IMG/VR virus record: IMGVR_UViG_2663763282_000004 | Length of the DNA: 13,632 nucleotides | Source of the DNA: a virus | Taxonomy: Duplodnaviria; Heunggongvirae; Uroviricota; Caudoviricetes | Strand: one strand, 5' to 3' | Shown here: positions 2,981-11,623 of the stretch, piece by piece | How the letters are laid out: every line of letters starts with the position of its first letter | Numbering within the stretch: the first letter of the stretch is position 1 | Translations under genes and position numbers: made by a program | The notes under the pieces: model-generated | Seen by the model: only the letters and a program-made list of their open reading frames with translations | Database searches by the model: none | What the model was told of the DNA's origin: nothing

Positions 2981-3010
2981 GGCAGGAGGTTGTTAGCGCG
3001 ACCTCCTGCC
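2981..3010 (-). other. Perfect 9-bp stem hairpin (ggcaggagg / cctcctgcc, 12-nt loop), possible tR'-like terminator or RNA processing element
   Basis: Inverted repeat seen directly; on the minus strand it is followed by GTTTTG (weak T-run). Confidence 0.3.
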
Positions 3011-3097
3011 ACCCACTTTCACGAAGGTCATGTGTAGAAGGCCGCAGCGTAACTATCACTGATGAATTCAGGATAGCCAGTGGCTACGGCTCAGTTA

Positions 3098-3173
3098 TGG
3101 TGCTGGTTAACGGACTTGAACCGCTACCCATTCGCTTACAAGGCGACTGCTCTACCATTGGAGCTAAACCAGC
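3098..3173 (-). tRNA. tRNA-Thr (anticodon UGU), phage-encoded
   Basis: Manual fold of minus strand: perfect 7-bp acceptor stem GCTGGTT/AACCAGC, D-arm GCTC-CAATGGTA-GAGC, anticodon loop CTTGTAA, T-arm AGCGG-TTCAAGT-CCGTT, discriminator A, encoded CCA. One G-A mismatch at the base of the anticodon stem. Confidence 0.65.
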
Positions 3174-3178
3174 ATGTT

Positions 3179-3253
3179 TGGCGGGACAGCGTGGACTCGA
3201 ACCACGATAAGAAGGTTAACAGCCTTCCGTAATGACCTTTATACGACTGACCC
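3179..3253 (-). tRNA. tRNA-Asn (anticodon GUU), phage-encoded, slightly non-canonical
   Basis: Manual fold: acceptor GGGTCAG/CTGTCCC (one U-U mismatch at 4:68), anticodon arm GAAGG-CTGTTAA-CCTTC, T-arm CGTGG-TTCGAGT-CCACG, encoded CCA; 5 nt from the Thr tRNA. Confidence 0.5.
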
Positions 3254-3316
3254 AAATAAAAAAAGCCACCGTTGCAACTTAAGAGTCACTAACGGCAGCT
3301 TACCCTCTAATTATGG

Positions 3317-3835
3317 CTAAATGGCTAATTGCATGTCAAGGCTTTTAACGGCAACATGCTTAACTTTCTCAACACGTTTACGCATTTTGAAAGCATTTTG
3401 CATTGGTTGGTACAAAACAAATAACGACGCTTTCAGGATGTCGTCAATTTCATTTCTACAGGTTGCCAGTGAAGGTTTTCTCCATCCCTCACCACCACGC
3501 CCACACATCTTGCGTGGCTTTGCAGTCGCGTGATAGTAGGATGCAATTGCTCGCTTAGATGAACCATGAGCGTAGTAGCTGAGGAGGATGCCAAAGGCTT
3601 TCTTGTCAATGTACATGACGGAATCGACGACCTGAGAAATCAACATTCCATCATCATCATTACACATTGGCCTTGTCATAACTCTTCCCGGCTCTACGCT
3701 CTCCATGAACTTCGCTATTACGCTGCTCATGCGCTTTTCCAGGCGACCTGAGTAAACCCATGCACCCCACAGTTCAAGCCAGCCATTCAGCCAATCGTGC
3801 TGTTCTTTGGTGAGGTTTAGTTCTCTTATGCTCAT
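3317..3835 (-). CDS. Putative late-gene antiterminator Q (non-lambda Q type), assigned mainly by synteny
   Basis: 172-aa ORF located between ninH and the tRNA/lysis block, start overlapping the ninH stop; I do not recognise the sequence with certainty as a specific Q family. Confidence 0.5.
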   Translation of the reverse strand: MSIRELNLTKEQHDWLNGWLELWGAWVYSGRLEKRMSSVIAKFMESVEPGRVMTRPMCNDDDGMLISQVVDSVMYIDKKAFGILLSYYAHGSSKRAIASYYHATAKPRKMCGRGGEGWRKPSLATCRNEIDDILKASLFVLYQPMQNAFKMRKRVEKVKHVAVKSLDMQLAI

Positions 3836-4020: not shown

Positions 4021-4379
4021 ACGTTCTCCAGTTCGGTGATTTTTATTCCAAGCCGTCCGCCTGGTACTTTCACACCACGAATTACGCGAATGTCATCGAA
4101 TTGCTCGTCGTCTTCCGCAAATCCGGCGTGGATAAGGGAATCGAGTAAACCTTTCAGGATGTTATCGAGGTCGCGGCGGCGGGAGTCTGGAACGTCTGCG
4201 ATGACTTTGATGCGGAGTCGTGATTTGGTGAAAATGTCTAACTTGAGTTGGCGGATGATTTTCTGAACGTCTTTTCGGTATTTCTGGCCTTTATCGCTGA
4301 TGTAGTATTGGCTTCCCCGTCTTCGCCAGTAGGTGTTCACCGACGGCGGGTATGGAAGCACAAACTGATATTCGTTCAT
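4017..4379 (-). CDS. rusA: Holliday-junction resolvase RusA
   Basis: 120 aa; LPYPPSVNTYW...RRRDLDNILKGLLDSL...GGRL motifs match the RusA family (catalytic acidic residues present). Confidence 0.9.
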   Translation of the reverse strand: MNEYQFVLPYPPSVNTYWRRRGSQYYISDKGQKYRKDVQKIIRQLKLDIFTKSRLRIKVIADVPDSRRRDLDNILKGLLDSLIHAGFAEDDEQFDDIRVIRGVKVPGGRLGIKITELENV

Positions 4380-4666
4380 GGCTTAATCTTCCCCTCCTTC
4401 AGCAGTATCGCCTGCGTCCTGATCACGCCTTCGAGGTGGTAAAGTCTGGCGTCTTTGTTGTCGAGATTATGGGTGCGTCGGTCGATTTCATCGTGACACG
4501 CGCTACAAGCCCATGCGCCGATCAGGTCGTCAGGCTTCATTCCCGTTCCGCAAATTCCAGCCATCCGGTAATGTGCCAGAACTGTAGTTTCAGGATTGCC
4601 ATTGCATACGCCGTAAATACGCACCTGACATTCTCTTCCGCGCGCTTCTTTGCGTAGATTAGCCAT
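4376..4666 (-). CDS. YbcO-like (DUF1364) nin-region protein, putative nuclease
   Basis: Internal start MANLRKEARGRECQVRIYGVCNGNPETTVLAH...ACSACHDEIDRRTH resembles E. coli DLP12 YbcO; start taken at the Met overlapping the upstream gene stop (ATGGCTAA). Confidence 0.7.
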   Translation of the reverse strand: MANLRKEARGRECQVRIYGVCNGNPETTVLAHYRMAGICGTGMKPDDLIGAWACSACHDEIDRRTHNLDNKDARLYHLEGVIRTQAILLKEGKIKP

Positions 4667-9380: not shown

Positions 9381-9421
9381 TCACCCGGTTAGAGGTGAAA
9401 GGCCAGAACTGTTAAAGAGCA
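9381..9421 (-). promoter_or_regulatory. nutR-like site (boxA + boxB) between cro and cII
   Basis: Minus strand TGCTCTTTAACAG (boxA-like, 9409-9421) followed by hairpin tcacc-tctaaccg-ggtga (9381-9398) whose loop shares CTAACC with the nutL boxB loop. Confidence 0.5.
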
Positions 9422-9693: not shown

Positions 9694-10344
9694 ATGAATA
9701 CACAACTGATGGGTGAGCGTATTCGCGCTCGCAGAAAAGAACTCAAGATTAGGCAGGCTGCCCTTGGCAAGATGGTTGGCGTGTCTAATGTTGCTATTTC
9801 CCAATGGGAGCGATCTGAAACTGAGCCCAATGGCGAAAACCTATTGGCCTTAGCCAAGGCTTTGCAGTGCTCCCCTGATTACCTGTTGAAAGGAGAGGAT
9901 AGTCTTTCAAACATTGCCTATCACAGCAGGCATGATCCAAGAGGTTCGTATCCTCTAATTAGTTGGGTAAGCGCAGGATGTTGGATGGAAGCTGTAGAGC
10001 CATATCATAGGCGTGCAATAGATAACTGGTACGACACAACGGTAGATTGTTCTGAAGACTCTTTTTGGCTCGACGTTAAAGGCGATTCAATGACTGCCCC
10101 GGCAGGACTGAGTATTCCTGAGGGGATGATTATTCTCGTCGACCCAGAAGTCGAACCACGTAATGGAAAGTTGGTAGTCGCCAAACTTGAAGGAGAAAAC
10201 GAGGCGACATTCAAAAAGTTAGTTATTGATGCCGGTAGAAAATTCCTGAAACCACTCAATCCACAATACCCAATGATTGAAATCAATGGGAACTGTAAAA
10301 TCATTGGCGTTGTCGTTGATGCCAAGCTAGCAAACCTTCCTTAA
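9694..10344 (+). CDS. c2: Prophage repressor c2 (P22 c2 / lambda cI family; N-terminal HTH, C-terminal LexA-like S24 autopeptidase)
   Basis: 216 aa MNTQLMGERIRARRKELKIRQAALGKMVGVSNVAISQWERSETEPNG... with C-terminal G-D-S-M and K motifs (VKGDSMTAPAG...VVAKL) of the S24 fold. Confidence 0.95.
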   Translation: MNTQLMGERIRARRKELKIRQAALGKMVGVSNVAISQWERSETEPNGENLLALAKALQCSPDYLLKGEDSLSNIAYHSRHDPRGSYPLISWVSAGCWMEAVEPYHRRAIDNWYDTTVDCSEDSFWLDVKGDSMTAPAGLSIPEGMIILVDPEVEPRNGKLVVAKLEGENEATFKKLVIDAGRKFLKPLNPQYPMIEINGNCKIIGVVVDAKLANLP

Positions 10345-10404: not shown

Positions 10405-10470
10405 ATAAAATTAAGTTTTCTTCAAAAATACACTTGACCAATAAATTAAGAAGTCTTAAATTTAAGCCAT
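10405..10470 (+). promoter_or_regulatory. OL operators and pL promoter
   Basis: -35 TTGACC (10434-10439), 17-bp spacer, -10 TAAATT (10457-10462); overlapping 18-bp operator AATTAAGAAGTCTTAAAT (10445-10462), with further half-site-like TTAAG repeats upstream. Confidence 0.55.
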
Positions 10471-10507: not shown

Positions 10508-10548
10508 GGCTCTTTAACATCGACGGACTCTCAACCTAACCGTTGAGA
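10508..10548 (+). promoter_or_regulatory. nutL (boxA GGCTCTTTAACA + boxB hairpin tctcaac-ctaacc-gttgaga)
   Basis: boxA-like element at 10508-10519; 7-bp stem/6-nt loop hairpin at 10529-10548, upstream of N in the pL leader. Confidence 0.6.
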
Positions 10549-10658: not shown

Positions 10659-10964
10659 ATGGTAACCATTGTCTGGAAAGAATCCAAAGGTACGGCAAAA
10701 AGCCGCTACAAAGCTCGCAGAGCAGAACTTATTGCCGAGCGACGCAGTAATGAAGCACTGGCGCGAAAAATTGCGCTAAAGCTCTCTGGTTGCGTCAGAG
10801 CAGACAAAGCAGCATCGCTAGGATGCCTTTGCTGCAAGAAGAAAGAAGAAGTCGTTCGAAAAAATAGAAGTATTTATTACAAAGATTCAAACCCATTAGG
10901 AAACAAAATACATGCAGTCCAAAAAATAAAATTGTACAGTAAACTACCGTACGGTGCTTATTGA
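10659..10964 (+). CDS. N: Antiterminator N, phage-21-type arginine-rich motif; 3' end mosaic
   Basis: AAGGAG RBS 6 nt upstream of ATG; N-terminal GTAKSRYKARRAELIAERR matches the phage 21 N ARM peptide as I recall it; the last ~40 codons are AT-rich and differ from the relic 3' end found at 11335-11430. Confidence 0.8.
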   Translation: MVTIVWKESKGTAKSRYKARRAELIAERRSNEALARKIALKLSGCVRADKAASLGCLCCKKKEEVVRKNRSIYYKDSNPLGNKIHAVQKIKLYSKLPYGAY

Positions 10965-10966
10965 GT

Positions 10967-11305
10967 ATGCTTATGGTGAAAAAGACTATTTATGTTAATC
11001 CTGACCGCGGACAAAACAGAAAAGTATCTGATAGAGGTCTTACATCTCGAGACAGGAGGAGAATAGCGAGATGGGAAAAAAGGATAGCATATGCATTAAA
11101 AAACGGTGTAACACCTGGATTTAATGCTATAGATGATGGCCCTGAATATAAGATTAATGAAGACCCAATGGACAAAGTTGACAAAGCATTAGCAACACCA
11201 TTTCCTCGCGATGTCGAAAAAATTGAAGATGAAAAATATGAGGATGTAATGCACAGAGTTGTTAATCACGCTCACCAACGAAATCCAAATAAAAAATGGT
11301 CATAG
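10967..11305 (+). CDS. Moron-encoded hypothetical protein (~112 aa, highly charged), unknown function
   Basis: AT-rich ORF starting 3 nt after the N stop (alternative starts at 10961 TTG or 10973 ATG; weak RBS); ends at a strong intrinsic terminator; no recognisable family. Confidence 0.55.
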   Translation: MLMVKKTIYVNPDRGQNRKVSDRGLTSRDRRRIARWEKRIAYALKNGVTPGFNAIDDGPEYKINEDPMDKVDKALATPFPRDVEKIEDEKYEDVMHRVVNHAHQRNPNKKWS

Positions 11306-11326
11306 CCCACTTCGGTGGGTTTTTTA
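11304..11326 (+). terminator. Rho-independent terminator after the moron ORF
   Basis: cccac-ttcg-gtggg (UUCG tetraloop) followed by TTTTTTATT. Confidence 0.7.
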
Positions 11327-11334
11327 TTGTCTGA

Positions 11335-11430
11335 ACAAACCTAATTTACTACCGCAAGCCACGCAGTGAAATGGGTGTGACTTGTGTTGGTCGCCAGAAA
11401 ATGAAATTAGGCAGCAAACCACTTATTTGA
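11335..11430 (+). pseudogene. Relic 3' end of an N gene (no start codon), left behind by module exchange
   Basis: In-frame translation TNLIYYRKPRSEMGVTCVGRQKMKLGSKPLI* parallels the C-terminus of the intact N (SIYYKDSNPLGNKIHAVQKIKLYSKLPYGAY*); an in-frame TGA lies immediately upstream. Confidence 0.55.
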
Positions 11431-11438
11431 GGTGATAT

Positions 11439-11525
11439 ATGGAAGAAGAATTTGAAGAGTTCGAAGAGCATCCTCAGGATGTGATGGAACAATACCAGGA
11501 CTATCCGTATGACTACGACTATTGA
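11439..11525 (+). CDS. Small highly acidic peptide ORF (28 aa); not in ORF track
   Basis: GAGGTGA RBS 4-5 nt upstream of ATG; MEEEFEEFEEHPQDVMEQYQDYPYDYDY. Confidence 0.4.
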   Translation: MEEEFEEFEEHPQDVMEQYQDYPYDYDY

Positions 11526-11596
11526 TAAAAATCAATGGTGTGGACAATACGAACGACGGCAATGATTTCCAGAGAACTTGGTAAACAGAACAACAA

Positions 11597-11623
11597 GGCT
11601 GCCTAATGGCAGCTTTTATTTTT
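11597..11623 (+). terminator. Rho-independent terminator
   Basis: gctgcc-taat-ggcagc followed by TTTTATTTTT. Confidence 0.6.

Follow-up and report, generated by a model that had tools for sequence, protein, structure and literature searches.

Nun is a textbook case both of superinfection exclusion encoded by a prophage and of transcription arrest. In HK022 Nun, the arginine-rich motif binds boxB of the lambda nut sites, for which the protein competes with lambda N, and arrest is stimulated by NusA, NusB, NusE and NusG when boxA is present; Nun-resistant rpoC mutants have also been reported, and HK022 lysogens hold Nun at a low concentration of about 100 nM (PMC5386594, PMC4124055). The role of the arginine-rich motif was set out by Kang et al. 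2017 (PMC5386594), and in their structure, PDB entry 6ALG, residues 87–109 alone are visible, a segment that holds all of the known arrest determinants. The sole role known for Nun is to exclude lambda and lambda imm434, two phages with nut sites in common (PMC4124055).

Here we analyse an ORF at positions 10967–11305 of a 13,632-nucleotide stretch of DNA from a tailed-phage record (IMGVR_UViG_2663763282_000004), called the window throughout. An earlier note, made from the letters alone, had proposed this ORF as a plausible undescribed accessory gene of the early-left operon, and we compared it with protein, structure, phage and bacterial genome collections and with the published work on Nun.

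Results

The ORF adjoining N encodes Nun

Judged by homology, the ORF at 10967–11305 is nun, the gene for a transcription termination/arrest factor that was first described in coliphage HK022. In a phmmer search of all PDB chains, its product matched chain N of the cryo-EM entry 6ALG ("Transcription termination factor nun") at 108 of 109 residues (E 2.5e-71), and the sole change, S11R in the 109-residue numbering, falls outside both functional segments of Nun, the arginine-rich motif and the C-terminal arrest peptide. The boxB-binding NUN peptide of the NMR entry 1HJI is identical in the ORF product over its entire length (26/26 residues), and the profile of PHROG 5632 (phrog_5632, "Nun-like transcription termination factor") was covered from position 1 to 112 of 112 (E 4.5e-71). 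Every mutated residue discussed in PMC5386594 and PMC4124055 (H93, R94, N97, H98, H100, R102, K106, K107 and W108) is kept in the window Nun, and the arrest peptide is conserved in all full-length homologues. The likeness extends to the DNA: positions 10847–11322, including 120 nt upstream of nun, are 96.8% identical to HK022 DNA, a figure that holds for the HK022 nun record X16093, the HK022 complete genome, O276 and HK75. We met no evidence that contradicts this identification.

The ORF had been described in the earlier note as uncharacterised and of no recognisable family, with clear homology to a known characterised protein named as the observation that would speak against this description. 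The 108/109 match to the 6ALG Nun, an identity of 99% to HK022 Nun, and the membership in PHROG 5632 are such homology, and the description must be given up. The proposal of an undescribed early function fares better in part: the class of function suggested, superinfection exclusion, is that of HK022 Nun, but after decades of genetics and biochemistry and the structures 6ALG and 1HJI it can hardly be called undescribed.

Table 1. Features of the early-left region of the window, in order of position.
Feature	Position	Strand	Basis and remarks
nutR, phage-21 type, downstream of cro	9384..9417	-	boxA tgctctttaaca, boxB hairpin tcacctctaaccgggtga; read from sequence
pL promoter-like site	10434..10462	+	TTGACC-17-TAAATT; consensus scan
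nutL, phage-21 type	10509..10548	+	boxA GCTCTTTA at 10509–10516; boxB hairpin CTCAACCTAACCGTTGAG at 10530–10547
Mosaic N antiterminator, 101 aa	10659..10964	+	PHROG 271 'N-like', E 8.7e-31
nun cassette, ~480 bp	10848..11330	+	36% G+C; absent from phage 21, common to HK022; five-way alignment, composition
Candidate PNun promoter, within the 3′ end of the N ORF	10912..10940	+	-35 ATGCAG at 10912–10917, -10 TACAGT at 10935–10940
nun coding sequence	10973..11305	+	110 codons plus stop; 6ALG match, PHROG 5632; start from homologues
Arginine-rich motif, Nun residues 19–44, predicted binder of the lambda boxB RNA hairpin	11030..11107	+	26/26 to 1HJI
C-terminal arrest peptide, Nun residues 87–109, predicted to enter the RNA polymerase elongation complex	11234..11302	+	Identical to 6ALG chain N
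nun intrinsic terminator	11304..11331	+	7-bp stem, UUCG loop, T run; stem-loop at 11304–11321
Displaced phage-21 N 3′ end, non-coding relic, ...NLIYYRKPRSEMGVTCVGRQKMKLGSKPLI*	11338..11430	+	Phage 21 alignment, translation

The nun cassette lies inside the 3′ end of N

The order of the genes and sites, cI (9694–10344), pL, nutL, N and nun, is that of an early-left operon beside a lambdoid immunity region (Table 1). We aligned the DNA of the window with that of HK022, O276, mEp235 and phage 21 in a five-way alignment, followed by local alignments. The window is collinear with phage 21 through pL, nutL and the first ~63 codons of N, switches to HK022-shared sequence at ~10848, after an octamer (AGAAGTCG) common to both, and returns to collinearity with phage 21 at 11338. 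On this alignment the cassette sits within a phage-21-type N gene, at its 3′ end, where it replaces the last ~38 codons. The insertion had been placed immediately after N, and the alignments with HK022 and phage 21 move its beginning into N itself.

Read in order, the cassette supplies 117 nt that encode a substitute C-terminus for N (...VVRKNRSIYYKDSNPLGNKIHAVQKIKLYSKLPYGAY), with the PNun hexamers inside those same 117 nt, then nun and then the terminator; PNun, nun and the terminator probably arrived together as one AT-rich cassette. Among the marks of a moron, it has the terminator, a G+C content of 36% as compared with 49% for the adjacent N sequence, and an absence from phage 21 that is delimited by sharp junctions, while its promoter is recognised by annotation only. 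The gene order, the composition and the terminator uphold the original impression of a self-contained, moron-like unit in the pL operon adjoining N.

As a consequence of the switch within the gene, N is mosaic, with codons 1 to about 63 representing the phage-21 allele and the last ~38 codons, from 10848 onward, a cassette-borne 'KDSNPLGNKIHAVQK' allele. BLASTP of the window N against phage 21 N gave 76/96 identical residues, with the divergence confined to the C-terminal part, and the mEp235 record annotates the same N as the window. A lambda-type N in an unrelated locus (L006, from Logan ERR3406188_276) carries the same C-terminal allele, ending ...ERKNRRTWYKDSNPFGNKIHAVQK..., and the substitute C-terminus is, to go by these comparisons, a genuine N allele. 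The displaced phage-21 N 3′ end lies just past the nun terminator, so that the window holds two diverged versions of the N 3′ end.

Beyond the relic, the window contains an intact orf28-like ORF of 28 codons (11439–11525, PHROG 16060), which lies upstream of a ral remnant. Compared with phage 21, this ral pseudogene (11509–11606) has lost 103 bp from its interior, at about 11544–11548 between short CAAT repeats, and its frame stops after 18 codons (MTTTIDKNQWCGQYERRQ*). Elsewhere, in the late-regulatory part of the prophage, adjacent genes for tRNA-Thr (TGT) and tRNA-Asn (GTT) occupy 3098–3253 on the minus strand; a search of the whole window with Rfam models at their gathering thresholds returned these two tRNAs only, and nothing in the nun region.

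Candidate promoter and terminator of nun

The hexamers of the candidate PNun and their spacing are identical to the -35 and -10 elements annotated as 'nun gene promoter' in phage O276, in the HK022 immunity region, and it is on this identity to an annotated promoter that we assign PNun here. A generic sigma-70 consensus scan found no promoter before nun, PNun being a poor match to the consensus. PNun is said to have been mapped by King et al. 2000.

At the other end, the UUCG-tetraloop terminator noticed at the first reading is present, with its 7-bp stem at 11304–11321 and a T run. Its fold has a predicted energy of -10.3 kcal/mol (z = -1.8). Relative to HK022, the stem has changed from CCCGC/GCGGG to CCCAC/GTGGG, so that both sides of the stem differ, by paired changes, in what is a homologous terminator; the loop differs as well. 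Nun would be expressed from PNun while the prophage is repressed and from pL once it is induced, through N-modified readthrough.

Predicted action of Nun and the resident nut sites

We took the mechanism from the literature on the 99% identical protein, which differs at one residue. In the repressed prophage, PNun would support low constitutive production of Nun from a transcript that ends at the terminator just past nun. Upon superinfection by lambda or by another phage with lambda nut sites, lambda imm434 for example, Nun residues 19–44 would bind boxB of the nascent nutL and nutR RNA, competing with lambda N, and the C-terminal 23 residues would thread into the active-site cleft of RNA polymerase, along a path between the beta′ lid and rudder, the RNA/DNA hybrid and the downstream DNA, blocking translocation. 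With arrest stimulated by NusA, NusB, NusE and NusG, lambda early transcription would stop and the infection would abort. Exclusion of lambda by the window prophage would be the known function of HK022 Nun carried over. To the explanation as a whole, in which the ORF is nun, Nun made from PNun jams RNA polymerase on lambda nut transcripts, and the cassette lies inside N, we assign a probability of about 94%.

The nut sites of the resident phage belong to another class. The nutL boxB matches phage 21 exactly, with no such match expected by chance, and the positions fit the boxA-L and nutL features of phage 21, whose pL transcription start corresponds to about window position 10469. The boxB of nutR is not of the lambda type, and a search of the whole window that allowed up to 2 mismatches revealed no lambda-type boxB. 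Because the resident nutL and nutR are of the phage-21 type and the window contains no lambda boxB, Nun should spare its own phage, and self-arrest is not expected.

The nature of these sites also bears on whether the gene, although nun by descent, could have a different or additional role in an N-21-type phage, such as modulating the phage's own N-dependent antitermination, acting on other nut classes, or simply being carried without a current target. The co-transcription of nun with N from pL, the embedding of PNun in the N coding sequence and the other arginine-rich motifs borne by relatives would all accommodate such a role, as would a literature that knows no function of Nun beyond lambda exclusion (PMC4124055). 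We nevertheless consider it improbable: the protein has the same RNA-binding motif as HK022 Nun, whose specificity is for lambda boxB, the nut sites of its own phage fall in a different class, and the substitutions in the gene follow the purifying pattern that the known function predicts (see below).

Nun is missed by common annotation resources

Scans of the ORF with Pfam, NCBIfam and PADLOC yielded no matching model, and only PHROGs and the sequence search of the PDB identified Nun. In RefSeq, both N and nun are named "hypothetical protein" in E. coli BR1220 (NZ_CP093068, L010), whose nun copy is 100% identical to that of the window. The missing models and the RefSeq name probably explain why no family was recognised at the first reading. 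They are also what might favour an undescribed early accessory protein of no known family, acting for example in anti-restriction or host takeover, a view that retains almost no weight in the face of a 99% identical Nun whose structure and biochemistry are known, a named PHROG and Nun annotations in GenBank.

The gene is in fact already known, and the order N-then-nun is already annotated in published phage genomes: mEp235, mEpX1 and PA28 are annotated with it, the records of mEpX1, PDP110P1, mEp235 and Kapi1 use the names "antitermination protein N" and "transcription termination factor Nun" for the pair, and some records of phages with this order call nun a 'hypothetical protein'. The main cluster of nun proteins at 90% identity has 556 member sequences from 860 contigs, and we found the cassette in 221 of 5426 complete E. 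coli genomes (~4%), always in the chromosome. With no model in the usual collections and with the RefSeq naming as it is, some 4% of complete E. coli genomes, including those with Stx1a phages, therefore carry a Nun that annotation does not recognise. The practical value of our result is one of annotation, and there is little new in the finding itself.

Coding status and start codon of nun

On the plus strand, the ORF runs without interruption to a TAG stop at 11303–11305, with in-frame candidate starts at TTG 10961, ATG 10967, ATG 10973 and GTG 10976. ATG 10967 lies 3 nt past the last base of the N stop codon (TGA, 10962–10964), in agreement with the spacing given in the earlier note, but it is probably not the start that is used. 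Homologues have M[VAK]KK at their N-terminus and the solved chain, of 109 aa, has VKKT, so that ATG 10973 is likely to be the true start. Starting there leaves 109 residues after removal of the methionine, which agrees with the published numbering, where W108 is the last residue but one.

Counted from ATG 10967, the 112-aa product consists of K, R, D and E to 37.5% and has a pI of about 9.7, and the ORF has a G+C content of 37%, where the window as a whole has 46% and the 5′ part of N 49%; the original portrayal of an AT-rich, highly charged ORF of ~112 aa is accurate. The codon differences between the window nun and its HK022 counterpart comprised 8 synonymous and 1 non-synonymous change, and those between the window nun and that of PA28 comprised 13 synonymous and 7 non-synonymous changes. 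The comparison with HK022 shows the pattern expected of purifying selection, and both comparisons support coding. Moreover, the frame and the two functional segments are retained in homologues of 61–67% identity that come from Citrobacter, among other sources. The concern that the ORF might be a non-coding artefact, which had been raised along with its discovery, is laid to rest by the excess of synonymous changes and the frame kept in homologues. Rare truncated or frameshifted variants do occur in databases (P0010, P0012, P0016, P0017, P0019 and P0020), yet an intact frame, near-identity to a functional Nun, mostly synonymous substitutions, the dominance of the intact form (556 members) and the retention of both functional segments in the 61–67% homologues make a chance ORF or a decaying, functionless pseudogene exceedingly unlikely.

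We regarded an antisense ORF of 64 aa at 10990–11184 as a shadow that the nun frame casts on the other strand.

A wider set of Nun-type arrest peptides

The L006 locus, which provided the lambda-type N described above, also contains a 61%-identical nun homologue (3001–3330) directly after cI, pL and a putL-like sequence (2850–2930). In tandem with this homologue is a second ORF of 97 aa (3324–3617) with the same C-terminal arrest peptide (VNHAHQRRPDKKWS). The N-terminus of this second protein is arginine-rich and resembles that of phage 21 N (NRRYKERGELIAKRK), with 12/30 identities to the window N over its first 30 residues (E 2e-4), and its 14 cluster relatives, from Klebsiella, Enterobacter and metagenomes, are all unnamed or called hypothetical protein. 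The lambda-type N ORF itself is at 4117–4440 and has the arginine-rich motif MDAQARRRERRAEKQAEWKAAN; no lambda-type boxB was detectable upstream of it.

A profile built from Nun and these proteins was run exhaustively against 1.84 billion representative sequences and recovered only 30 proteins at E <=1e-3. Among the 18 that were retrieved, 17 are 70–124 aa long and end in D[AI]M..VVNHAHQR.P.KKW(S), the exception being P0050, which ends ...VNHAHQRNP. Their N-terminal halves resemble N proteins of more than one kind: that of P0046 is 48% identical to lambda/434 N over 52 residues (E 4e-15), P0042 aligns with 21-type N over about 75 residues (E 1e-6), P0048 and P0040 are also 21-like, and P0061 and P0053 begin in what we take to be the manner of P22 N.

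These sequences suggest that the arrest peptide is a module that has been joined to N-mimicking RNA-binding halves aimed at different nut classes, and the small proteins that carry it could serve in exclusion, with other nut classes as their new targets. Taken together with the comparisons below, they allow a broader reading, to which we would give even odds: Nun would be the founder of a wider family in which the D[AI]M..VVNHAHQR.P.KKW peptide has been recombined with lambda-like, 21-like and P22-like N halves, each allele excluding a different nut class, with the position adjacent to N serving as a hot spot of exchange. Under the same reading, the N-then-nun order would be ancestral, the 117 nt preceding HK022 nun, with PNun, would be a fossil of the N 3′ end, and the window phage, with its N-21 and boxB-21, would itself be the prey of 21-type alleles. 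In the limited collection of literature that we searched, we found no description of such a Nun family or of nun in the mEp or 434 genomes. The N 3′-end relic that serves HK022 as its PNun region, and the arrest peptides joined to lambda-, 21- and P22-like arginine-rich motifs, could make the targeting logic of nut-directed exclusion testable.

Comparison with known systems

The nearest characterised relative is HK022 Nun, whose arginine-rich motif and arrest peptide are identical to those of the window protein and whose gene occupies the same place in the pL operon beside the immunity region. The two phages differ in what precedes nun: HK022 has no N gene and has putL upstream, whereas the window has a live N of the phage-21 type. 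The 117 nt before nun in HK022 (L003 1441–1557), which hold PNun, correspond to a relic of an N 3′ end in which the stop codon has become TGG, whereas in the window the equivalent sequence encodes the C-terminus of a live N. When translated in the N frame, the HK022 segment is identical to the C-terminus of the L006 lambda-type N at 19/25 residues (E 4e-12), so that the stretch of HK022 that holds PNun resembles a fossilised N 3′ end. Because these 117 nt still read as an open N C-terminus with a mutated stop, they suggest that HK022 descended from an N-then-nun ancestor.

Several phages have the same arrangement as the window. In mEp235, mEpX1, vB_EcoP_Kapi1, PDP110P1 and Stx1a phages including PA28, the same mosaic N is followed 3 nt later by nun and then by the terminator. 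From the end of N to the relic, the DNA of mEpX1, PDP110P1, mEp235 and Kapi1 is 97–99.3% identical to the window, and in the Stx1a-converting phages and PA28 the nun copy is 91.6% identical at the DNA level, with its frame intact. The cargo farther downstream differs, in that the place taken in the window by the orf28-like ORF and the ral remnant is occupied in mEp235 by an ORF of 207 aa.

Phage 21 shares with the window pL, the boxA and boxB of nutL and the first ~63 codons of N, and the two are collinear again over the N 3′ end, orf28, ral and ea10. It lacks the ~480-bp nun cassette, retains its native N C-terminus and has an intact ral, and in all three respects the window differs from it.

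In phage 434, a 289-aa 'Nun C-terminal peptide-containing protein' (L009 677–1546, OL657226) is encoded directly after N, as nun is in the window, and its last 16 residues (NPVNHAHQRNPNKKWS) are those of the Nun arrest peptide. Unlike Nun, it has a large, unrelated N-terminal body and no Nun arginine-rich motif. Lambda N, finally, works with the same Nus factors and nut sites as Nun, but it brings about antitermination where Nun brings about arrest, and the C-terminal segments by which the two proteins bind RNA polymerase are unrelated.
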